64,000 nt of DNA from an uncultured Gammaproteobacteria bacterium (GTDB taxonomy: Bacteria; Patescibacteriota; Patescibacteriia; JAHIZJ01), in NCBI GenBank assembly GCA_964594455.1, contig CAZQLY010000005.1, positions 1,682 to 65,681 of the forward strand, written 5' to 3'. Below are positions 1,425-62,733 of this stretch, in pieces. Position numbers and translations under genes: made by a program. The notes beneath the pieces were generated by a model that searched no databases, was not told the DNA's origin, and saw nothing but the letters and a program-made list of their open reading frames with translations. Position 1 is the stretch's first letter, and every line of letters starts with the position of its first letter.

Positions 1425-2486
1425 TTATACGTTACCTAGGTGTTTTTTTATTTCCTCAAGATATAAATGACTAATATATTTCCAGTTATAGTATTTCTTG
1501 GTATAAGCAGCTACCTCTTCAGATATGTTCTTTAAATTACTGCTGCCTTTCAATTCATTTATTTTGGAAATGAATTCCTCAGCTCGACCTGACTCGACTA
1601 AGAAGCCGTTTTTGCCATCAACAATCGCATCCTGTATGCCTTCAATGGACGAAGCCACGGCCGGTAATCCTCTAACTGCCGCCTCAATCAAAACAATACC
1701 AAACCCCTCAATATCTCCAGCCACTTTGATATTGGGCATAATAAACAAGTCACAGACACTGAACAACATTTCACGTGTTTCATCTGGTACTCGACCCAGT
1801 AATTTAACTTTTGAATGAAGATGTAACTCTTCTATTTTTAAACTTATTGTTTCGGCCTCAGATCCATCGCCGGCGATTAGATACAAAAAATCATCTGATA
1901 AATTCGGCATAACGTTTTCTACAAACCAGGCAGTTCCCTTTCTTTTCACTAAACGACCCAGAGAGAGCAAGATAAATTTTCCTTCAACACTTTGTTGCAA
2001 ATATCCTTCGAGATCTTTTCTGTAATATTTTTTTATCAAAGTAGGAATTTCCGTACCATTGGGTATAAAAGTACATTGGTCTCCCCTGATACCTCTTTTT
2101 ACACACTCATCAATAGTGGCCCGCCCCACAGTAAATACATGATCCATCTTTCTGATAAAAGGAACCACTGCCTTCTGATACAGCTTGTTCTGGTATGTAA
2201 TATCCAGACCGTGAACTGTAATATAAACTGGTTTTCGTGTTATTAATTTAAGTAGATAGCCAACCGGAGCCAATAAACCATCCGTTAAATAAATACAGTT
2301 AACTCCCCATGACAAAAAAAACCCTGCAACCAAGGAATAGGGCAAGAACCAAATCAGATTATATTGCTTGCCCTTTAGAGCGATAAGTCTTCGTCGGCAA
2401 GCTATATTATTGATAAGTCCATAACTGTAATTTTCCATCCCTCCAACCTGAGGTGGATATTTTCTAGTTATGAAAAGTATTTTCAT
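1425..2486 (-). CDS. Glycosyltransferase family 4 (GT-B, GT4)
   Basis: N-terminus MKILFITRKYPPQVGGMENY and C-terminal GT4-like segment (EGFGIVLIEA... GLP... S..G). Head of a co-directional glycosylation operon. Confidence 0.7.
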   Translation of the reverse strand: MKILFITRKYPPQVGGMENYSYGLINNIACRRRLIALKGKQYNLIWFLPYSLVAGFFLSWGVNCIYLTDGLLAPVGYLLKLITRKPVYITVHGLDITYQNKLYQKAVVPFIRKMDHVFTVGRATIDECVKRGIRGDQCTFIPNGTEIPTLIKKYYRKDLEGYLQQSVEGKFILLSLGRLVKRKGTAWFVENVMPNLSDDFLYLIAGDGSEAETISLKIEELHLHSKVKLLGRVPDETREMLFSVCDLFIMPNIKVAGDIEGFGIVLIEAAVRGLPAVASSIEGIQDAIVDGKNGFLVESGRAEEFISKINELKGSSNLKNISEEVAAYTKKYYNWKYISHLYLEEIKKHLGNV

Positions 2487-3433
2487 TTTTTCAATGCTTC
2501 TTTCTTTTGTCGGTATAATATCTCTTCCTGCATTTTTCTATTCCAGCCAATGGCTGAAGCTATCAGGCCCAAGATAAACACCTGGAATCCTAATAGTATC
2601 AATATAGCTGCAATCACCAGTGACTGAATATGACCTTTGCCCTCATCAGCGGTAAAAAAGTAAAAATAGAGAAAACGTAATATCAGAAAAAAACCAGGCA
2701 GAAAAATCACCAAACCCAACCCCGACATCACTCTGAGCGGTTTATAGATGGTGAAGACTCGGGAAATAACTATCAAAGATTTAACCAGGTGCTTTGGTAT
2801 GCTAGAAATAAGCCGAGACTTACGAGTAACCTTGCGGGCTTTGATAGGTACCGAGGTTATTTTCATGTTATGGTCCAGGGCTTGAATCAGGGTTTCGTGA
2901 GTATAAGTATGTTTAGACAAAATTGAAATACGCAGGGCTGCTTCACGGTTGTATGCCCGAAAACCGCTTGATACGTCCAGGGTCTTTTTTAAACCGATTA
3001 ATCTAGAAACGCAGTAACTGCCAAACAGGTTTAAATATTTATTGGCCGCTGGCATATATTCTAAGTTTTTTACTTCCCTATCTCCGATTACCACGTCAGC
3101 CTTCTTTCCCAACAACGGCTGGATCAAATCCGGAATACGGGATTGATTATAATGATTATCGCCATCAGTGTTTACAATAATATCAGCCCCACGCTGCAAG
3201 GCTTCCTGAATCAGGCGTTGAAAGGTATAGGCCAGTTTCTTATTAGTACCATTTGATAAAACATAATCAGCCCCAGCCGAACGAGCCAGATCCATTGTAT
3301 TGTCTGTGGAGCCGTCGTCCAATACCATAACTTCAACCTTTTCAATACCAGGTATTTGGCGCGGGATTTCCCGAATCACAGTCTCAATATTTTCTGCCTC
3401 GTTATAGGCAGGGATGGTGACTATTAACTTCAT
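2483..3433 (-). CDS. Glycosyltransferase family 2, polyprenol-phosphate mannosyl/glucosyl-transferase-like (DPM1/GtrB-like) with C-terminal TM segment
   Basis: TIPAYNEAENI...VLDDGSTD... DGD motif. Hydrophobic C-terminal helices. 4-nt overlap with the next gene. Confidence 0.7.
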   Translation of the reverse strand: MKLIVTIPAYNEAENIETVIREIPRQIPGIEKVEVMVLDDGSTDNTMDLARSAGADYVLSNGTNKKLAYTFQRLIQEALQRGADIIVNTDGDNHYNQSRIPDLIQPLLGKKADVVIGDREVKNLEYMPAANKYLNLFGSYCVSRLIGLKKTLDVSSGFRAYNREAALRISILSKHTYTHETLIQALDHNMKITSVPIKARKVTRKSRLISSIPKHLVKSLIVISRVFTIYKPLRVMSGLGLVIFLPGFFLILRFLYFYFFTADEGKGHIQSLVIAAILILLGFQVFILGLIASAIGWNRKMQEEILYRQKKEALKK

Positions 3434-3443
3434 AAAATTGGGC

Positions 3444-4727
<1,284 letters not shown>

Positions 4728-10480: not shown

Positions 10481-11575
10481 TTATTGGATTGAAGAATTTT
10501 TTGGCAACGCCAGCCAGTTGTTGCCTGATCGAGTAAGCGCCTCTCGATAATTACCTTTTGAATTCATTTTCCAAATTTGCACTTTACGATTACCGCTGGA
10601 TAAATCCAAAGTGTTATACAAAATATCGCCGTTCTCAGTCCGTGACCATCTAGCTGATATGCCGTTGTTGATTAATTGTTCCCACTGACTGCCGTCGACT
10701 CTAACGTGGCCGATATTTCCTAGAAGAGCATCTTGATCTATTACTTGAGTATAGAGAATAATCTGACTGTCAGCTGACAGGTCCAGAGTCCAGTCTCCTA
10801 CATCAGCTATTTTTGGCATTTCAATAATGACCGACTCGTTCTGTCCACGCAAGTCATTGGCTTTGATCCTAAAATTGTTTTCTTCTTCAACTATATAATA
10901 AACTTTTTCGCCTGCGATAGAAAAGATCGGGGCATATGTAACACCCGATACGATCAGTAAAGGGTCAGTTGTCACCCCAGTACGCAGAATCTCCGAATAA
11001 TATGTCCCTGACCTAGTATTGTATACCATTCTCCGGCTGTCGGGTGATATTTGTATTGATAAAACACCGTCACTTATGGGCCGCACCTCATGACTGTCCA
11101 AATGAACCAAAAAACTTCTCAGGCTTCCATCCATACTCTTAGTATCAGAAACCGAATAGACTGCATAGTGGCCGTTGGGAGCCGCCGTTAACTGCTTGGG
11201 TATATCTCTGAGAGCTAGGACAAAATCTTTCTCATTAGAATCAATAGTATACTTCCAAAGTTTAAAAAACTCTTCCTCTCTTGAGAAATACAAAAGAGTA
11301 TTATCACCTATCATCACGGGTAGCAACTGATCGCTGCTATTTGGAACTACAGCTACTGACCGATCACGATACTCTTGATAAGTATAAATATTCCATAGGC
11401 CTGTTTGGTCCGAAATAAAAGGCTGTATCGGCTCTGAGGTCAGTAAATCAACTGTTTCTCTTTGAACAATATGGCCTTTTACTTCCCCTGTCTCCCCTTC
11501 TGACTCCAACCACCAATAAACCAGGCCGGCCAGGCTTATTACTGCGATAACTAATATCAATATCCGTTTAACCAT
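10481..11575 (-). CDS. Membrane-anchored hypothetical protein, possible beta-propeller ectodomain
   Basis: N-terminal TM helix. Repetitive beta-rich segments with recurring aromatic/Ser/Asp pattern. Weak call. Confidence 0.35.
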   Translation of the reverse strand: MVKRILILVIAVISLAGLVYWWLESEGETGEVKGHIVQRETVDLLTSEPIQPFISDQTGLWNIYTYQEYRDRSVAVVPNSSDQLLPVMIGDNTLLYFSREEEFFKLWKYTIDSNEKDFVLALRDIPKQLTAAPNGHYAVYSVSDTKSMDGSLRSFLVHLDSHEVRPISDGVLSIQISPDSRRMVYNTRSGTYYSEILRTGVTTDPLLIVSGVTYAPIFSIAGEKVYYIVEEENNFRIKANDLRGQNESVIIEMPKIADVGDWTLDLSADSQIILYTQVIDQDALLGNIGHVRVDGSQWEQLINNGISARWSRTENGDILYNTLDLSSGNRKVQIWKMNSKGNYREALTRSGNNWLALPKNSSIQ

Positions 11576-11629
11576 AATTATATTTCTAACCTAATGCTGT
11601 TTTTTGTCAATATACGAAATACCCTCTTT

Positions 11630-12451
11630 TTATTTATTTCCTTTTTCCAAAAAACATTTATCAAAATTAGGGTTATCTTTCCATTTACATTGTCCACTAA
11701 CACAGCCACAGGAAGTGTACTGATAGCATTCATAATAAGGCCGAGCCAGGCAAGGACTGACTACTGACTCCACTAGCCCCTTGACCCCACATACTTCGCT
11801 GGAACACCCACCGATCGCACAATCTGAATCTGAGTTACATTCGTCTCTGGCTTTAGAAATAATAGTAAACTTCTCTTTGGTAACTTGTCCGTCAGCGTCA
11901 GTTATTAATACATGGTAAGTTCCAGACGGCACTAAGCTAGATTCTTCATGAGAAATAGTTTTACCCTGGCACTCCTCTTGGATAGACCAAAATATATTCT
12001 GGTCCCAGCTAAACGTGCCTGATACTTTTTTGACCCCGCAGTCAATCGCATCACTGCAGCGATCATCAGTGTTTTCAACAATAATCTCTCCGGCCTGACA
12101 ATACAGATCCACGCCGCGTCCCACTATTCCTGCGCAGGAGTGTTTTATATTTAAACTTTCACCTTCACTATCGGTAATTTGATAAGGTAAGAAATCAGAA
12201 CAATACTCTACTAGGTAATTACTTAATGTGAATTCCACCGTTTCTCCAGATACATAGGTTTTTTTAGTCAGCTCAATACTGCCCTCACCCGACTCGGTAT
12301 TGGAATCGCTGTCAGTGGTTGTTTCATTATCAACCGTACTATTTGATGTATCACCACTTTCAGACTCTTGATTAAAGACTAAAGCAACAACAACCCCAAC
12401 CCAACCTAGGAATAAAATTGTTATTACCGTATATAATACTTTTTTATTCAT
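11630..12451 (-). CDS. Secreted Thr/Ser/Asp-rich, cysteine-rich protein
   Basis: Signal/TM N-terminus, a low-complexity TTDSDSNTESGEG linker and more than 20 Cys, including a C-terminal cluster CNSDSDCAIGGCSSEVCG...CGCVSGQCKWK. Confidence 0.4.
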   Translation of the reverse strand: MNKKVLYTVITILFLGWVGVVVALVFNQESESGDTSNSTVDNETTTDSDSNTESGEGSIELTKKTYVSGETVEFTLSNYLVEYCSDFLPYQITDSEGESLNIKHSCAGIVGRGVDLYCQAGEIIVENTDDRCSDAIDCGVKKVSGTFSWDQNIFWSIQEECQGKTISHEESSLVPSGTYHVLITDADGQVTKEKFTIISKARDECNSDSDCAIGGCSSEVCGVKGLVESVVSPCLARPYYECYQYTSCGCVSGQCKWKDNPNFDKCFLEKGNK

Positions 12452-23709: not shown

Positions 23710-24288
23710 ATGTACCGGAAGAATCATTTTTCGTTCTTTGTTTTCGTCTTCGGCGCAGCCCTTCTTCTACAGGGTTGCGCTGGTGGCATTCGTGGTTTCG
23801 CCGCAATCGGAATCAATCCAGTTGGCCTCTTCTGTGGCACCACCCTGACCATCAAAGACGGGCAGTACTATCGGTATCTGTCCGACGAGCAGATCAGCGA
23901 GGAAGGTAACCTTACCACCTACGCGGTCAAGCCGATCGGCACGATCCGGAGACGACTGGACTTTGGTGTTCGACCTGATCCTCCGCATGGCATGTTCGTT
24001 TACCGCGTCGAATGGCGCAACTCACAACATGATCATTGGCGTGAGATCGGCCATCAGCGTCACGGAGACAATCCTTACCAATTCAGCATGGGGCGTCGAG
24101 CCATTGGCTCAATCCAAGCTGAGGTCAGGGTGATCTACCGTTACGCTACTGTGGCGCCATCTACATCAGGAGATATGGTCATCGTCAACTCGACTCCAGA
24201 AGACCGGAACACGATCAATCCGGACGACAAAATCGTCCACTACTTGATCCCGATCACATTCGCTCACAGCTATTGCGACCTCAACTAG
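23710..24288 (+). CDS. Lipoprotein (lipobox LLQGC), unknown function, on a GC-rich compositional island
   Basis: Signal peptide plus LLLQGC lipobox. Local GC is clearly higher than the flanks. Own promoter and terminator. Confidence 0.5.
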   Translation: MYRKNHFSFFVFVFGAALLLQGCAGGIRGFAAIGINPVGLFCGTTLTIKDGQYYRYLSDEQISEEGNLTTYAVKPIGTIRRRLDFGVRPDPPHGMFVYRVEWRNSQHDHWREIGHQRHGDNPYQFSMGRRAIGSIQAEVRVIYRYATVAPSTSGDMVIVNSTPEDRNTINPDDKIVHYLIPITFAHSYCDLN

Positions 24289-56683: not shown

Positions 56684-56778
56684 AGCTTTTTTATTATACC
56701 AAAATATTGCCTTTCTTTCAATTATAGGCTCTTGCCAAATAATATTTATTCTGCTAGTATAGGAAAAGTTTCAAACAC

Positions 56779-56838
56779 GCGCCGTTAGCTCAGTTGGCCC
56801 GCCTCGCCGAGACGGCAAGTCGAGGCGGGTAGAGCAGT
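56779..56838 (+). pseudogene. 5' fragment of tRNA-Lys (positions about 1-26), duplicated 254 nt upstream of the intact gene, with a 32-nt GC hairpin inserted in the D-loop after G18G19
   Basis: GCGCCGTTAGCTCAGTTGG-[hairpin]-TAGAGCAGT is identical to 57093-57119 apart from the insert. Similarity also extends about 5 nt upstream (CAACACGC). Confidence 0.55.
56798..56829 (+). repeat. GC hairpin element CCCGCCTCG-CCGAGACGGCAAGT-CGAGGCGGG
   Basis: Perfect 9-bp inverted repeat. Family member. Confidence 0.7.
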
Positions 56839-56844
56839 TATTAA

Positions 56845-57102
56845 ATGATTGCTACTTACATACTGTTTAGCCAAAAAGACAGAAAAACATACGTCGGGTA
56901 TTCTTGTAATTTAACAGATAGGTTAAGAAATCATAGACTGGGACTAGTCTCAGCAACTAGAAATAGACGACCGTTGTCGCTTATAGCTTATCGACCTGCT
57001 AGTAATATCGAAGACGCAAGAAAAATAGAAAAATATTGGAAAACAGCGTCAGGGCGCAGATTCCTTAAAAAAATACTTATAGATATCAACACGCGCCGTT
57101 AG
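56845..57102 (+). CDS. Small GIY-YIG domain nuclease (85 aa, catalytic domain only)
   Basis: TYILFSQKDRKTYVGYSCNLTDRLRNH matches GIY...YIG...R..H. A downstream Glu (IEKYWK) is present. The last four codons and the stop (AAC ACG CGC CGT TAG) are the 5' end of the tRNA-Lys gene. Confidence 0.6.
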   Translation: MIATYILFSQKDRKTYVGYSCNLTDRLRNHRLGLVSATRNRRPLSLIAYRPASNIEDARKIEKYWKTASGRRFLKKILIDINTRR

Positions 57103-57168
57103 CTCAGTTGGTAGAGCAGTGGCCTTTTAAGCCAACGGTCGGGGGTTCGAATCCCTCACGGCGCACCA
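57093..57168 (+). tRNA. tRNA-Lys (anticodon UUU), intact
   Basis: GCGCCGTTAGCTCAGTTGGTAGAGCAGTGGCCTTTTAAGCCAACGGTCGGGGGTTCGAATCCCTCACGGCGCACCA. Cloverleaf pairs and CCA is encoded. Confidence 0.9.
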
Positions 57169-57172
57169 GTAA

Positions 57173-57198
57173 AAAACGCCATTGGGGCGTGTTTTTAT
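57173..57198 (+). terminator. Rho-independent terminator after tRNA-Lys
   Basis: AAACGCC-ATTG-GGGCGTG hairpin followed by TTTTTATTT. Confidence 0.5.
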
Positions 57199-57233
57199 TT
57201 GACTAGAATCCCCATCTAAGTCATCATTAAAGT

Positions 57234-57731
57234 ATGGAAGAAATAACCATAAAACAGCTAGAAGAAAAAGCTCAAGAATTGCAGAACGCTGAAAAACGCT
57301 GGCATTTTCATATGCTGACTCCAGACTGTTTGTTTAACGAAAGTAATGACAAACATGCACTTGTAATAGAAGATACTACCGATGACCAGCAATATGTTGC
57401 TTATTCCAAAAACAGAGAGTTTGCGCTTGGTAAAAAGCTGCTCAAACTTCTTCATGGCGGCAAAGTTTTAACTAAATCAAAAAAACCATCCACTATAGAA
57501 AACCCGAACTTGCAGAAATTGATTGACCGAGCAAAGGATATAAATAAAAAGGGCCTACCCTGGCACCATCACGTTTTGTTCCCTGATTGTCAGTATAACG
57601 ACCGAGTAGGTCAATGGAATATAGTCATGGAGGATAAGGAGAAAGGCGAGCTGCTTGAGGCTTCATATGATTTAGAGCCAACCAACGATCAGAATATCAT
57701 CGAACAACTTTTCTACGATCAAAAAGAATAA
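57234..57731 (+). CDS. Hypothetical protein with tandem WHxH-hLxPDC repeat
   Basis: Two copies of an approximately 37-aa module (RWHFHMLTPDCLFNESNDKHALVIEDTTDDQQYVAY / PWHHHVLFPDCQYNDRVGQWNIVMEDKEKGELLEASY). Confidence 0.4.
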   Translation: MEEITIKQLEEKAQELQNAEKRWHFHMLTPDCLFNESNDKHALVIEDTTDDQQYVAYSKNREFALGKKLLKLLHGGKVLTKSKKPSTIENPNLQKLIDRAKDINKKGLPWHHHVLFPDCQYNDRVGQWNIVMEDKEKGELLEASYDLEPTNDQNIIEQLFYDQKE

Positions 57732-58253
57732 ATGAAAAAAAATCAGATTCTAAAAAAACTAACCGGAGGGGATCTGCGCTCGATCGGACGAGCTGACGAA
57801 GTTGCCCAGGATGTTTTGGATAATCCTGAGTTGTTTTCTAATGTTTTTGAAGGTATGAATAATGACGATCCTAGGATCCGGATGCGCAGCGCTGACGCTC
57901 TGCAGAAAGTGGCAGAAAAGCACCCGGAATATTTACAACCCCACAAGAAACAACTGCTTGACGAAATATCAAAGATTGATCAGCAAGAGGTGCAGTGGCA
58001 CGTAGCTCAAATGCTGAGCTATCTTGATTATCAATCTGAAGAGATACCAAAAGCGGTTGATATTCTGATGGAATATATTAATAAATCAGATAGCAATATA
58101 GTCATTGTCAATTCACTTCAGGCTTTAGCAGATCTGGTGGAAAAAGATCAATCACTTAAGCCAAAGGTGAAAACAATAATTGAAGACAAGATGAAATCCG
58201 GGGGACCGGCTATCTTCAGTCGAGGCAAGAAACTGCTGGAAAAAATGAATTAA
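57732..58253 (+). CDS. Hypothetical alpha-helical (HEAT/ARM-like) protein
   Basis: Repetitive helical pattern. Start codon abuts the stop of the preceding ORF. Confidence 0.35.
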   Translation: MKKNQILKKLTGGDLRSIGRADEVAQDVLDNPELFSNVFEGMNNDDPRIRMRSADALQKVAEKHPEYLQPHKKQLLDEISKIDQQEVQWHVAQMLSYLDYQSEEIPKAVDILMEYINKSDSNIVIVNSLQALADLVEKDQSLKPKVKTIIEDKMKSGGPAIFSRGKKLLEKMN

Positions 58254-58292
58254 AAAAGCTCCCTATTGAATTGAGAGCTATAGGCAGGCTGA

Positions 58293-58658
58293 TTATTCGG
58301 CCGGTTTTGAGATACGGATCCGGTGGAATTCACCGTGCCTGGTTCGAAGGTCATATATACCTTCATAGTAGACCATACCAACACGCTCAACCGGCATCTC
58401 AAAACCAATCCAATAAGAGGTTTTTATATTACCAAGACTAGTCAGGCCCAGAAAAACAACTCGGCAAGCACACAAATTGAACTCACAACCAGGTGCAGTA
58501 AAACACACTGTGTGCTGCCTAGAGAGCGAGCATAGAATGTCGAGCTCACCCGGCCCCCCAGTAACACCAATCTTGTCTGCATCACGTTCAACAACCACTT
58601 TCCCCGAAACTGTGTTGTACGAATGCCAGGGAAAAATGGTTTCGTTTCGTTCGGCCAT
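58293..58658 (-). CDS. Hypothetical Cys-containing small protein on a GC-rich island
   Basis: ORF in a region of clearly raised GC. No recognisable family. Confidence 0.35.
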   Translation of the reverse strand: MAERNETIFPWHSYNTVSGKVVVERDADKIGVTGGPGELDILCSLSRQHTVCFTAPGCEFNLCACRVVFLGLTSLGNIKTSYWIGFEMPVERVGMVYYEGIYDLRTRHGEFHRIRISKPAE

Positions 58659-58792
58659 ATCGGCACCTCCTGGTCAAAGAACTTTGCCAGAGCATATCGC
58701 TCAGACTACCCACTCAGGATGAGCAAGCTGTTTACTGTATATCGAATTTATATAGATGTCAATAAAAAACCCACACCTATGTAAGGCTGGGT

Positions 58793-59497
58793 TTAGAACC
58801 ATCTGCCCGTAACGTGATACGGATGGTTAGGAATGGCCGGAGCACTGATCAGACAGCCCAGGCAATCGAACACGTCTGATTTGGCTTTTACGACGATCTG
58901 ATTCTGCTCAAAACAGACTTTGACTTCGTATCTGGGCCGACCTACGATCGTCAGAAATATCTCCAAATCTTCCGGGTCGTTGAAGTCAGCTACGGCCAGA
59001 AATTCCGGCGATAGCTCGATGTGGCCACGCCCGTCTATCAGACAAACTTGGGTGACTTCCTCAACCCTGGGCTTCAGAGTAACCACGTTACTGTCAGCAA
59101 AGACGTAACCGATATCTCCCCAGCACAGGTGTTTTGGCGCTAGAACCATGAAGTTGGCCCAGCCGTTGTAGGTCGAGTCAGCGTGAAAGATAATCGACTC
59201 GCTGGTATACTCGAACCAAATCTGCCCAGAGCCGGGCTGGCATGAAGTCAAAGAAATGGTTGGCGTGTAGCCTGGATCGACTTCCTGGAGAAAAACGGGA
59301 TCGAACCGAAATTCAGCCAACCCGTTTTGAAACTCCACGTCGCCATAACGCCGAATCACTGGCGCAGTCGTGACTACGAAGTAGATCCGGTCTAAACCTG
59401 CCGAGTAACTCAGTGAATCAACAGAACTATCTTGAGCTGACGACTCGACTGGGGCGCATATCGCCATCAGGCACAGAAGTAATGATAATCGAATCAT
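58793..59497 (-). CDS. Secreted hypothetical protein on a GC-rich island
   Basis: Signal peptide (MIRLSLLLCLMAICAPVESSA). Raised GC. Several Cys. Confidence 0.4.
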   Translation of the reverse strand: MIRLSLLLCLMAICAPVESSAQDSSVDSLSYSAGLDRIYFVVTTAPVIRRYGDVEFQNGLAEFRFDPVFLQEVDPGYTPTISLTSCQPGSGQIWFEYTSESIIFHADSTYNGWANFMVLAPKHLCWGDIGYVFADSNVVTLKPRVEEVTQVCLIDGRGHIELSPEFLAVADFNDPEDLEIFLTIVGRPRYEVKVCFEQNQIVVKAKSDVFDCLGCLISAPAIPNHPYHVTGRWF

Positions 59498-59584
59498 CCT
59501 GACCCCCCCTATCGGAAACCATAGCCTATAAAAAAAGGAACCTATATCTTATTACCAGTATAGGACCTAATTGTCAAGCCATGC

Positions 59585-60247
59585 TTAAAAAAGTTTCTGC
59601 GTTGAGGGCGTCGATGGTGCTGCTGGCTTTTTGTTTATTGGACCACTGGAGGCGCCGTTGTCTTTGGCTATGTCTATAGCCCTGCCCCTCGCTTGAGCTC
59701 TTTCGTTTAACTTGATGAAAACCTGCCGGGTAACTTCAACATCAACCTGAGCTCGATGGGCAGAGGGTTGCGGCACTTTTAGATAAGCCGCTACTTTTTC
59801 CAAACTATAGCTGGGGATTATCAAATACTTGCGGGCTAATTCAATTGTATCAATCGTTTTATTCTTTAAAGAAGGTTGACCCAAACGATCCAGATGGGCG
59901 TTCAAAAAAGCCAAATCAAATCCGATATTATGACCGATCAAGGGCAGGTCTTCAATAAACTGTACAAATTCTGGGATAACCATTTCAGCTGGCTTACCCT
60001 CTTTGGTCAATAATTCGTTTGATATGCCGTGGATTGATTGCGACTCCTCATCAATGTGTCGGTCTGTCATTACTAGGGAATGGTAAGAATTAACCACCTC
60101 AAGATCACGGATTCGTTCACCCGCCACTTCAATGATACTGTGGCCTTCATGTGGTTTAAAACCCGTGGTTTCTACGTCTAATACTATGTAGTCACTTTTT
60201 GCCATAATACCAAGCATTGTACTCGATATCATCATTTTTGACAACAC
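59585..60247 (-). CDS. DnaQ-family 3'-5' exonuclease (DNA polymerase III epsilon-like)
   Basis: Exo I motif YIVLDVETTG, Exo II IGHNIGFDLAFL, Exo III H....D near the C-terminus. Confidence 0.7.
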   Translation of the reverse strand: MLSKMMISSTMLGIMAKSDYIVLDVETTGFKPHEGHSIIEVAGERIRDLEVVNSYHSLVMTDRHIDEESQSIHGISNELLTKEGKPAEMVIPEFVQFIEDLPLIGHNIGFDLAFLNAHLDRLGQPSLKNKTIDTIELARKYLIIPSYSLEKVAAYLKVPQPSAHRAQVDVEVTRQVFIKLNERAQARGRAIDIAKDNGASSGPINKKPAAPSTPSTQKLF

Positions 60248-60352
60248 TTAACCTTTATTGTGTGGGGATAATCCGTTAACAAACTGTGTGCTTTGGCGCC
60301 TTGATTCTTTCTTGGCGATCAGCTAAGATAATAGGACTGAAAGTGGTTTAAT

Positions 60353-61762
60353 ATGATGGCGGAAAACAAACCAGAGGACAAAAAAACTATTACCAAAATG
60401 CCACCGCACAACCTAGAGGCTGAGCAGGCTCTTTTGGGTTCTCTTTTGATTGATAAAGACGCCATTACAAAAATTGCCGATATCGTTTCTCCTTATGACT
60501 TTTATAAAGACGCTCATAGATTTATCTTTGAATCAATGCTGGATCTGTACGAGAAGCGTGAACCAATAGATATGTTAAGCTTGGCTAACAGGTTAGAAGA
60601 AGTTCAGAAACTGGAAAACGTCGGTGGACGCACTTACCTCACCAATCTGGCGAATATAGTACCCACAGCCAGTCACGTAGTTTATTACGCGAATATAATT
60701 CAGAAAAAAGCTACTTTACGCCGTTTGATAGACTCGGCTACCGAAATAGCCGGCATGGGCTATAACGAAGAAGACGAGGTTGACTCTCTTTTGGATCGGG
60801 CCGAACGCTCTCTTTTTCAGGTATCACAAAAATTCTTAAAGCAAAACTTTTACCCCATTAAGGGCTTGTTGACTGATGCCTTTGATCGAATGGATGAGCT
60901 TCATCGAGAAAGCGGCAAGCTGCGAGGTTTGCCTAGCGGTTTTCCCGACTTGGATAATTATTTAGCTGGATTTCAAAAATCTGATTTGATAATTTTAGCC
61001 GCCCGTCCTTCAGTGGGTAAAACATCTTTGGCCTTGGACTTCATTCGTCAGGCTGCAATTAAGCACAAGGCAGCCATTGCCATGTTCAGCTTGGAAATGT
61101 CTAAGGAGCAGCTGATTGATCGCCTACTCTGTGCTGAAGCCAGAGTCAGCTTGTGGAAGTTTCGCACTGGGAAATTGTCGGATCAGGGCGAAGAAAATGA
61201 TTTTACTAGCATTGCCCACGCCATGGGTAAATTATCTGAAGCAAAAATTTATATTGACGACACTGCGACATTAAATCTAATGGAGATCCGGACTAAGGCC
61301 CGACGTTTGAAATCTGAAAACGGACTGGATCTTTTACTCGTTGATTACCTTCAGCTGATGGAGGGTCGTGGCAATAAAGACAATAGGGTGCAAGAGATAG
61401 CTGAAATCACTCGGGGCTTAAAAGCTATAGCCAGAGAAATAAACGTACCGGTTATAGGGCTATCGCAGCTATCACGGGCAGTTGAGATGAGTAAACCAGC
61501 TATTCCTAAACTGGCTCATTTACGTGAGTCCGGTTCTATTGAGCAAGACGCTGACGTGGTTATGTTTATTTATCGTAAGCTGATGGATCGAAATTTTCGC
61601 AAAGAAGATATTAAACCAGAAGAATTAAATCTAGCTGAAGTACATATTGCCAAACATAGAAATGGGCCCACCGGGACAGTCAAACTAAGGTTTAATGAAA
61701 ACAGCGTAAATTTTGAAAGCGACGTCGGAGAACGTTTTTTAGAAAACGAAAGCCCCTTCTAA
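60353..61762 (+). CDS. dnaB: Replicative DNA helicase
   Basis: PPHNLEAEQALLGSLL N-terminal motif. Walker A ARPSVGKTSLA. RecA-like C-terminal domain. Confidence 0.9.
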   Translation: MMAENKPEDKKTITKMPPHNLEAEQALLGSLLIDKDAITKIADIVSPYDFYKDAHRFIFESMLDLYEKREPIDMLSLANRLEEVQKLENVGGRTYLTNLANIVPTASHVVYYANIIQKKATLRRLIDSATEIAGMGYNEEDEVDSLLDRAERSLFQVSQKFLKQNFYPIKGLLTDAFDRMDELHRESGKLRGLPSGFPDLDNYLAGFQKSDLIILAARPSVGKTSLALDFIRQAAIKHKAAIAMFSLEMSKEQLIDRLLCAEARVSLWKFRTGKLSDQGEENDFTSIAHAMGKLSEAKIYIDDTATLNLMEIRTKARRLKSENGLDLLLVDYLQLMEGRGNKDNRVQEIAEITRGLKAIAREINVPVIGLSQLSRAVEMSKPAIPKLAHLRESGSIEQDADVVMFIYRKLMDRNFRKEDIKPEELNLAEVHIAKHRNGPTGTVKLRFNENSVNFESDVGERFLENESPF

Positions 61763-61810
61763 AGAATTAAAAAGTAACAATTAAAAATTAACAAAATTGT
61801 TATTTATTAA

Positions 61811-62128
61811 TTGTTAATTCTTAATTTAAACGTTGTGTTTCAAAAACTAAAACAGTACAAAGACCTTCGCGATAAGGCAAAAAATATCCAAAGCGAGCTG
61901 GCCCAAGAATCAGTGGTAGTTGAGGAAAACGGCGTCAGCCTTGTCATGGACGGAAATCAAGAGATATTGAAAGTTGAAATCCAAGATGAGTTACTGGCTC
62001 CCGAAAAAAAAGATAAGCTGGAACAAGCTATCAAGGGTGCGGTTAACCAAGCTCATAAGAAGATCCAGCGAGTAATGGTAGAAAAAATGCGTTCCAGTGG
62101 TGATTTTAATATTCCCGGACTCTCCTAA
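61811..62128 (+). CDS. ybaB: Nucleoid-associated protein YbaB/EbfC
   Basis: Pattern ...KLKQYKDLRDKAKNIQSELAQESVVVEENGVSLVMDGNQEILKVEIQDELL. The true start may be the in-frame GTG at 61835. Immediately upstream of recR, as is typical. Confidence 0.75.
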   Translation: MLILNLNVVFQKLKQYKDLRDKAKNIQSELAQESVVVEENGVSLVMDGNQEILKVEIQDELLAPEKKDKLEQAIKGAVNQAHKKIQRVMVEKMRSSGDFNIPGLS

Positions 62129-62133
62129 TTTAT

Positions 62134-62733
62134 ATGTCTCAATTACCAAAACCGATCCAGGATTTGATAGAAGAATTCAATAAGCTACCCGGAGTTGGAC
62201 CCAAAACATCCGAGCGCTTTGCTTATTATCTAATTCAGCAGCCGGATAGCGATATAAAAAAATTGATCCAGTCATTACAGAACCTGCAAACCAAAGTAAA
62301 AAAATGCTCTCGTTGCCTGACCTTTTCGGAAATGGATCCCTGCAACCTGTGTAAGGATTCTCAAAGAGACCAAACAACGCTCTGTATAGTCGCCCACCCG
62401 CCGCAAATCCAGCTGATAGAAAAGACCGGCGAGTATCAGGGACTTTACTTTGTCCTCGGAGGAGTTCTGAATCCAGTCGAAGGAATTACGCCCGATCACT
62501 TGAATATTAAAATGTTGCTTCAAAGAATTAAGAACAGCCAGCCTAAAATCAAAGAAATCATATTGGCTCTAAATCCAGATGTTGAAGGTGAATCGACTGC
62601 CTTGTATCTCAAAAAATATTTACAATCAGAAGTACCAAAAATAACCAAGCTGGCCCGAGGCCTACCTATGGGTGGTGATCTTGATTACGCCGACGAGATA
62701 ACTCTCCAGAACGCCCTCAAAGGAAGAATGTAA
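62134..62733 (+). CDS. recR: Recombination protein RecR
   Basis: HhH motif LPGVGPKTSERFAYYL, C4 zinc finger CSRCLTFSEMDPCNLC, and Toprim domain. Confidence 0.9.
   Translation: MSQLPKPIQDLIEEFNKLPGVGPKTSERFAYYLIQQPDSDIKKLIQSLQNLQTKVKKCSRCLTFSEMDPCNLCKDSQRDQTTLCIVAHPPQIQLIEKTGEYQGLYFVLGGVLNPVEGITPDHLNIKMLLQRIKNSQPKIKEIILALNPDVEGESTALYLKKYLQSEVPKITKLARGLPMGGDLDYADEITLQNALKGRM

Follow-up and report, generated by a model that had tools for sequence, protein, structure and literature searches.

A small GC-rich two-gene insert, probably acquired, between the converging HEAT-repeat and dnaQ genes of a Patescibacteria genome

How did a GC-rich block with two genes of no recognized family come to lie between the converging ends of a HEAT-repeat protein gene and dnaQ in a genome of the Patescibacteria (candidate phyla radiation, CPR), and was it acquired or inherited? 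The present study analyzes this block, at 58254-59584 in a 64-kb stretch of contig CAZQLY010000005.1 (the window, whose numbering is used throughout unless a relative is named). An earlier note on the window had described the block as compositionally distinct and as holding two minus-strand genes, and both descriptions hold. The GC content is 0.483 in the block compared with 0.419 in the whole window, and the 1-kb windows with the highest GC in the 64 kb are those at 58251-60000 (maximum 0.498, z = 3.2 in the distribution of 1-kb windows). The two open reading frames (ORFs) exist as described: ORF121 (58293-58658, minus strand; 121 amino acids with five cysteines) and ORF234 (58793-59497, minus strand; 234 amino acids with a signal-peptide-like N-terminus). 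Random sequences matched to the insert in composition gave an ORF of 234 or more amino acids in 0.05% of trials and a second ORF of 121 or more in 0.3%, so that these are not chance reading frames. Patterns detected make it probable that the block is a genomic islet of 1,326 bp (58259-59584), a small cassette of two genes that was acquired horizontally and entered the tail-to-tail junction of the HEAT and dnaQ genes. The insert coincides with the limits that the earlier note had drawn for the GC-rich block, is absent from the syntenic site of the relative L027, and is deviant in composition, clearly for ORF234 and at the borderline for ORF121.

Relatives were recovered by probing with DnaB and with the conserved neighbor ORF165 (o165), and three were informative, namely L027, L002, and L003. 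The closest available relative is L027 (JAEAME010000056.1), with identities of 85% for DnaB, 73% for the ATPase, 61% for the HEAT protein, and 71% for DnaQ, and a GC content of 0.419, equal to that of the window. Its gene order (hyp210, P-type ATPase, tRNA-Lys, o165, HEAT, dnaQ, dnaB, ybaB, recR, rplU) is the order of the window minus ORF121 and ORF234. In L027 the HEAT gene (10511-11026, plus strand) and dnaQ (11018-11668, minus strand) converge with a 9-bp overlap (TTAAAATAA) and there is no DNA between them. This junction is an empty site, which the earlier note had proposed looking for; it had also taken conserved synteny of the same genes in relatives as a sign that the genes were ancestral, and no such synteny was found. 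The native left flank of the insert is ORF173 (57732-58253, plus strand), a HEAT-repeat protein gene (Pfam HEAT_2, E 3.4e-10) with a homologue at the same position in L027. The native right flank is a DnaQ-like DEDDh 3'-5' exonuclease gene (59585-60247, minus strand; Pfam RNase_T, E 1e-26), with homologues occupying this position in L027, L002, and L003 and dnaB adjoining in all; similarity along dnaQ, where a recombination footprint was looked for, ran without a clear shift.

The ends of the HEAT gene and dnaQ are 1,331 bp apart in the window, and an exact 9-bp direct repeat, TTAAAAAAG, lies at 58250-58258 and 59585-59593, one copy on each stop codon. The left copy, a putative target-site duplication, contains the TAA stop of ORF173 (58251-58253), and the right copy is the complement of the dnaQ stop and last two codons (..L-F-stop). 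Because the repeat covers both stop codons, each flanking gene keeps an intact end. Removal of 58259-59593 in silico leaves a HEAT protein ending in KKLLEKMN and a DnaQ ending in TQKLF, both full length, in a locus where the two genes overlap by 4 nt much as they do in L027; the predicted empty-site sequence of the window locus is GAATTAAAAAAGTTTCTGCG. The 9-mer has only six copies in the window, both strands counted, and in simulations that kept local base composition the chance of a shared 9-mer covering both stop codons was 0.003-0.005. The repeat is therefore good evidence of insertion but not overwhelming.

Composition of the coding sequences is consistent with a foreign source for ORF234. 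Its GC content at third codon positions (GC3) is 0.574, compared with 0.413 +/- 0.051 for the 57 ORFs of at least 150 amino acids, placing it at rank 2 (z about +3.2), and it is at these third positions that its GC excess is located. Synonymous codon choice was also modeled from the long ORFs of each genome and expressed as a per-codon log-likelihood, own genome minus the L002 model. ORF234 had a difference of -0.041 compared with +0.080 +/- 0.028 for 41 native ORFs (z = -4.4, beyond the native range), i.e. its synonymous codons fit the model of the GC-richer L002 better than that of its own genome. The GC3 signal does point to a lateral origin of ORF234. In ORF121 the GC content is raised chiefly at the second codon position (GC2 0.434, GC3 0.443) and codon usage is borderline (z -1.9), and in ORF165 and ORF173 both GC3 and codon usage are native. 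In L002 and L003 the genes that occupy the same position are also 5-8 GC points above their own genome, but this parallel is superficial because the excess there is at codon position 2, reflecting amino-acid make-up, with native GC3. A survey of Patescibacteria in an aquifer reported islands and individually transferred genes by the hundred, with most of the exchange taking place inside the phylum (PMC12455944), and lateral gain is thus to be expected in these genomes.

In three related genomes the position beside dnaQ is a slot for differing genes of secreted or surface proteins, which bears on how episymbiotic Patescibacteria vary their cell surface. L002 and L003 (DnaB 81-82% identical) keep the backbone and lack the HEAT gene, and between o165 and dnaQ they have two minus-strand genes. 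The first encodes a signal-peptide protein of 899 or 811 amino acids with tail-fibre-like repeats (mutual identity 30%, E 5e-71), and the second a protein of 197 or 206 amino acids with FlgD_ig and Por_Secre_tail domains; no flanking repeats of 8 nt or more were found around these cassettes. The content of the interval from tRNA-Lys to dnaB ranges from nothing in L008 to a GIY-YIG gene in L024, o165 with the fibre cassette and dnaQ in L002 and L003, and o165 with HEAT and dnaQ in L027; this stretch is plastic over long evolutionary times. The insert resembles the fibre plus FlgD_ig/Por_Secre_tail cassettes (L002 5810-9119, L003 5969-9063, and L051 249-3704) in its slot beside dnaQ, its strand, and its signal-peptide protein. 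It also offers a probable case, at base resolution, of a streamlined, gene-dense CPR genome gaining foreign genes at no cost to the neighbors, both of which would be left intact by duplication of the 9 bp common to the overlapping gene ends.

The earlier note had found neither protein to have an identifiable family. This remains accurate insofar as ORF121 and ORF234 match no family in Pfam, NCBIfam, PHROGs, or PADLOC, but it is incomplete for ORF234, which shares a short significant motif with surface proteins of the relatives. A word-indexed search of 5.8 billion proteins returned only the self matches of both ORFs, from one NCBI contig and one Logan assembly, and phmmer, run exhaustively on 1.84 billion cluster representatives, returned only the self match of ORF234. 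A look-up of names given to the proteins at their source returned none. There was no match of the insert to phage genomes (blastn) or of ORF234 to viral contigs, and a PDB sequence search found nothing for ORF234 or for P0003, a metagenome protein discussed below. A designed propeller in the PDB matched ORF121 below threshold (E 0.002, with no stretch that passed) and was dismissed. As judged by these searches, both appear to be genuine ORFans, and they are possible targets for structure determination.

ORF234 has a putative signal peptide, MIRLSLLLCLMAICAPVESSA followed by QD. The N-terminus reads M-I-R, then LSLLLCLMAICAP, then VESSA before QD, and would fit the pattern of a positive n-region, a hydrophobic core, and an A-x-A-type cleavage site. 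The mature part has six cysteines and consists of two halves in tandem (approximately residues 36-128 and 129-234), both with G-x-[AG]-x-[IF]-x-[LF]-[DS]-P-x-F-L; the halves align weakly with each other (E 0.008, with 38 of 2000 shuffles reaching the score). Both halves match the same C-terminal stretch of the L002 fibre-like protein (L002_899) and of P0003, its only database homologue. BLASTP pairwise E values against P0003 were 3e-5 and 7e-4, and Smith-Waterman scores against the two proteins were 53-64 versus 26 +/- 4, reached by none of 2000 shuffles in three of four comparisons and by 2 of 2000 in the fourth. With hhalign, the two small alignments matched over 30 columns with an E value of 4.9e-5 and a probability of 68%, the fibre family having only two or three known members. 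Each half has in common with the fibre C-terminal domain a motif of the VNG-x-AHVELDP-x-FLE type. In contrast to the fibres of L002 and L003, ORF234 has 234 rather than 811-899 amino acids, with neither the SYQG..LYD module at the N-terminus nor the GIGT repeats. These features, and the FlgD_ig and Por_Secre_tail domains, are absent from ORF121 as well, which in this differs from the second gene of the fibre cassettes.

From these patterns ORF234 may be a compact exported protein with two binding modules akin to the distal fibre domain, serving in surface binding and plausibly in attachment, an assignment made with low confidence. It would be exported by the Sec pathway and act as a small binding protein, secreted or at the cell surface, in which a beta-rich module occurs twice; this module would be a relative of the distal C-terminal domain found in the tail-fibre-like proteins of the L002 and L003 slot. 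ORF121 has no signal peptide and its five cysteines are clustered at residues 43-65; it would be a separately transcribed, cytoplasmic, accessory Cys-cluster protein. Both proteins are predicted to be all-beta in AlphaFold2 single-sequence models (mean predicted local distance difference test, pLDDT, 39.8 and 32.7). Two further comparisons were set aside. ORF121 as a relative of FlgD_ig rested on one weak match (E 0.019 in a database of nine sequences) with no Pfam support, and although ORF234 and the L003 fibre have signal peptides that are more alike than shuffled sequences, an unrelated signal peptide also exceeds the shuffles, so that this likeness is not discriminating.

The gene for P0003 is followed by a FlgD_ig/Por_Secre_tail gene, in a cassette of the same kind as that in the L002 and L003 slot. 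On the metagenome contig concerned (L051 249-3704) the fibre C-terminus and the FlgD_ig/Por_Secre_tail protein are followed by a protein of 746 amino acids, whose C-terminus is a FlgD_ig-type domain 55% identical to the 180-amino-acid protein. This arrangement suggests arrays of such surface-protein genes.

Several observations weigh against an acquired cassette with a surface-binding protein. Polarity, i.e. gain rather than loss, rests on one distant relative (L027, about 85% DnaB identity). The insert is heterogeneous in composition, given the nearly native GC3 and borderline codon usage of ORF121, and about 9% of shuffles contain some 9-mer common to both 110-nt end windows, so that an A-rich 9-mer is not extremely improbable. 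There are no inverted repeats, transposase, integrase, or second copy, hence no known mechanism is demonstrated, and the independent assembly of the locus does not span the left junction, its contigs stopping at 58244 and restarting at 58253. With regard to function, the similarity of ORF234 to the fibre covers only 26-39 residues per half at the hhalign probability given above, and the structure models of both ORFs are unusable at their pLDDT, so that the functional assignment is weak. An alternative explanation could be that the two genes are ancestral and were lost in L027 by recombination between the 9-bp repeats, which fused the gene ends, with the raised GC reflecting a peculiar amino-acid composition in surface proteins that evolve fast. 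Short direct repeats often give rise to deletions of the DNA between them, which favors this explanation, as does the presence of GC-rich cargo (5-8 points) in the slot of the more distant L002 and L003, the nearly native codon usage of ORF121, and the motif that ORF234 has in common with that cargo, which could mean descent from an ancestral cassette. However, vertical descent would not account for the deviation of ORF234 in GC3 and synonymous usage (z -4.4), given that the excess in L002 and L003 is at position 2 with native GC3. Moreover, loss requires that the 9-mer was present on both stop codons by chance beforehand (p about 0.003-0.005), whereas insertion produces the repeat automatically, and we consider loss unlikely although worth serious attention. 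It is improbable, to a somewhat greater degree, that the ORFs are decaying pseudogene leftovers of a former fibre and FlgD_ig cassette, in which case their ORFan status would come from decay and not from novelty. Such decay would agree with the low-confidence structure models, with the lack of any homologue in the protein collections searched, and with the short motif as the only tie between ORF234 and the fibre proteins; yet long unbroken ORFs are improbable by chance, a signal peptide, a strong Shine-Dalgarno sequence, a near-consensus promoter, and terminator-like hairpins are all kept, and tblastn detected no frameshifted fibre or FlgD_ig fragments.

The block could also have been misjoined to the HEAT gene from another organism or locus during metagenome assembly, and its composition, unlike that of the host, would be in keeping with this. 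In the Logan assembly of run SRR7048224, contig L001 is 100% identical to 58253-62273 and links the whole insert to dnaQ, dnaB, ybaB, and recR, independently reproducing the right junction, and a second contig, L050, covers o165 and HEAT (57127-58244). The assembly breaks exactly at the left junction (58244/58253), leaving a gap of 8 bp (58245-58252, ATGAATTA) between two A6 runs at the junction of HEAT and insert. A population variant in these eight bases would fit, since the 31-mers missing here are just those that it would remove, and a dip in coverage is also possible. A misjoin is very unlikely all the same, because the independent assembly has the block in one piece with dnaQ-dnaB-ybaB-recR, L001 reaches 6 nt past the insert into the left repeat copy, the resulting HEAT protein is of normal length (173 amino acids versus 171 in L027), the join reproduces a 9-bp duplication, far below any assembler k-mer, and L027 synteny predicts HEAT beside dnaQ. 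The remaining explanation is that of the earlier note, which had placed the block downstream of tRNA-Lys and a GIY-YIG gene and just before a DnaQ-like exonuclease gene and had proposed an accessory island spanning 57169-60250. Those locations are right: tRNA-Lys(UUU), the sole Rfam finding, is at 57093-57168, the GIY-YIG ORF is at 56845-57102, and the exonuclease gene is at 59585-60247. The GC-rich block is also accessory, being absent from L027, but neither the extent of the island nor its link to the tRNA holds. ORF165 (57234-57731), ORF173, and dnaQ are conserved in order in L027 with native composition, and the inserted DNA is therefore 58259-59584 only, bounded by two stop codons and with two native genes (o165 and HEAT) standing between it and the tRNA, 1.1 kb away. 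The note had seen no integrase gene and no tRNA-derived direct repeat, and there is indeed no integrase domain (Pfam, NCBIfam) in any of the six ORFs of 56845-60247. The 25 nt at the tRNA 3' end, with up to 3 mismatches, matched the tRNA itself only, and when the whole tRNA was aligned locally to 57169-60300 under relaxed conditions, as the note had suggested, the best score was 21, compared with 19.5 +/- 2.0 for shuffled tRNA. Integration of such an island at tRNA-Lys through a site-specific recombinase that has since been lost or degraded would be in line with the varying content between tRNA-Lys and dnaB among relatives and with a separate GIY-YIG insertion that disrupts the tRNA 5' region in the window, but it is extremely unlikely. 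The intuition of a plastic neighborhood was right in general and the specific tRNA-integration model is contradicted. Integrative genomic islands linked to tRNA genes have been reviewed (PMC2704930). The insert resembles them in atypical GC, accessory genes, and a distance of about 1 kb to a tRNA gene, but differs in having no integrase or tRNA-derived repeat, in the native genes that intervene, and in being 10-100 times smaller.

For a horizontally acquired cassette, the 9 bp would have been duplicated by the insertion event itself. This could have occurred by a staggered cut followed by fill-in, or through a circular intermediate that underwent a single crossover with the chromosome across 9 bp of microhomology or a core site. 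As the insert lacks both a recombinase gene and inverted ends, the enzyme would have been supplied in trans. The donor was probably another, GC-richer Patescibacteria lineage, and the tRNA-Lys gene would have played no part. Terminal inverted repeats were not found in the 80-nt ends or in wider windows (aligning the left end to the reverse-complemented right end gave a score of 14, compared with 13.5 +/- 2.3 for shuffles), and with neither these nor a transposase the insertion mechanism can only be inferred. A second copy of the proteins encoded by the insert was found neither in the 64 kb nor in the phage, viral-contig, and protein collections.

A 9-bp duplication is the size made by DDE transposases of the IS4, IS5, and IS1 types, IS denoting insertion sequence. 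Mobile insertion cassettes (MICs) are non-autonomous transposon derivatives, such as MIC231 of Bacillus cereus, in which passenger genes between IS ends are moved in trans. The insert is like them in having passenger genes without a transposase and a short flanking duplication of the target-site type, and unlike them in having no terminal inverted repeats, no further copy in either the window or the databases, and no matching IS. A classical transposon or a MIC is ruled out by the absence of an inverted repeat beyond chance, of a transposase, and of any second copy found. The term mobile insertion cassettes appears in PMC4337579 and PMC5444012. It would be a long shot that the insert is the first copy seen of a new non-autonomous mobile cassette of Patescibacteria, with no inverted ends, a 9-bp duplication, and its own promoter signals and terminator-like hairpins, that is moved in trans and slips self-contained genes for secreted proteins harmlessly into the overlapping ends of converging genes. 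If so, the two ORFs would found new protein families for attachment to host cells. The insert is like the islets and individually transferred genes of Patescibacteria (PMC12455944) in being a short accessory segment with atypical composition and hypothetical genes, which relatives lack and which was probably passed between members of the phylum. Compared with the islets in that survey the insert is very small (1.3 kb, two genes), has base-exact limits given by the 9-bp repeat and the empty site, and has no homologue in the public collections searched. Overall this is a very cleanly delimited but ordinary strain-specific gene gain, unsurprising for CPR genomes.

There were several putative expression signals in the insert, all on the minus strand. 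Upstream of ORF121 is a sigma-70-like promoter, TTGACA-17-TACAGT (58734-58762), which matches 10 of 12 consensus positions and is joint best of the region, the match to consensus being its sole basis. A strong Shine-Dalgarno sequence, AGGAGGTG (58664-58671), was read 5 nt upstream of the ORF121 ATG. Directly after the ORF234 stop is a terminator-like hairpin with U6 (58764-58794; RNA fold -12.6 kcal/mol, z -1.6). A weak terminator-like structure lies 3' of ORF121 (58252-58279), where a 7-bp hairpin is followed by a U-run that is the complement of the A-run in the left repeat copy; its fold of -8.7 kcal/mol (z -0.8) does not stand out from shuffles. A hairpin CCUAUA...UAUAGG with U7 (59530-59564) lies inside the right end of the insert, 21-55 nt downstream of the dnaQ stop, with a function that is inferred. 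The hairpin and A-run at the left end are similar to it (repeat family D10).

Neighboring genes showed further patterns. ORF165 (57234-57731, plus strand) has counterparts in L002 (5204-5701), L003 (5060-5551), and L027 (10001-10498) and belongs to a conserved family without a Pfam model, present on 25 metagenome contigs. It consists of two repeats, each with a W-H-[FH]-H ... P-[DE]-C motif that may bind metal. Its neighborhood is conserved in the four closest genomes only and not in more distant relatives. ORF173 has a weak match to the PADLOC model OloA, a candidate defense-system component (E 8.4e-5, 20 bits).

In L002 the tRNA-Lys is inverted (3685-3761, minus strand) and is flanked, within 2087-4672, by two low-GC genes (2087-3393, GC 0.41 compared with 0.49 for the locus) and an ORF of 267 amino acids, which also adjoins o165 on the metagenome contig L025; this region is a further rearrangement around tRNA-Lys. 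The GIY-YIG ORF of the window encodes 85 amino acids, with the catalytic domain only. On each side of it (56774-57111) is a copy of a 24-nt direct repeat, AACACGCGCCGTTAGCTCAGTTGG; the two copies are identical and include the tRNA-Lys 5' end. In the upstream pseudo-copy AACACGCGCCGTTAGCTCAGTTGG is followed by a 32-nt GC-rich hairpin (fold -26.7 kcal/mol) and then by TAGAGCAGT, which corresponds to the next tRNA bases. In L027 and L003 the tRNA-Lys is uninterrupted and there is no GIY-YIG gene, and in L024 a GIY-YIG homologue lies downstream of tRNA-Lys. The GIY-YIG ORF looks like a separate mobile insertion into the D-arm region of the tRNA that brought a replacement 5' half.

Elsewhere in the window, an ORF of 192 amino acids (23710-24288, plus strand) has the highest GC3 (0.615) and the most foreign codon usage (z = -6.1 relative to native ORFs). 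It has no Pfam family and lies inside another GC-rich stretch (23.25-24.75 kb), adjoining a CorA gene, and is probably another laterally acquired ORFan.

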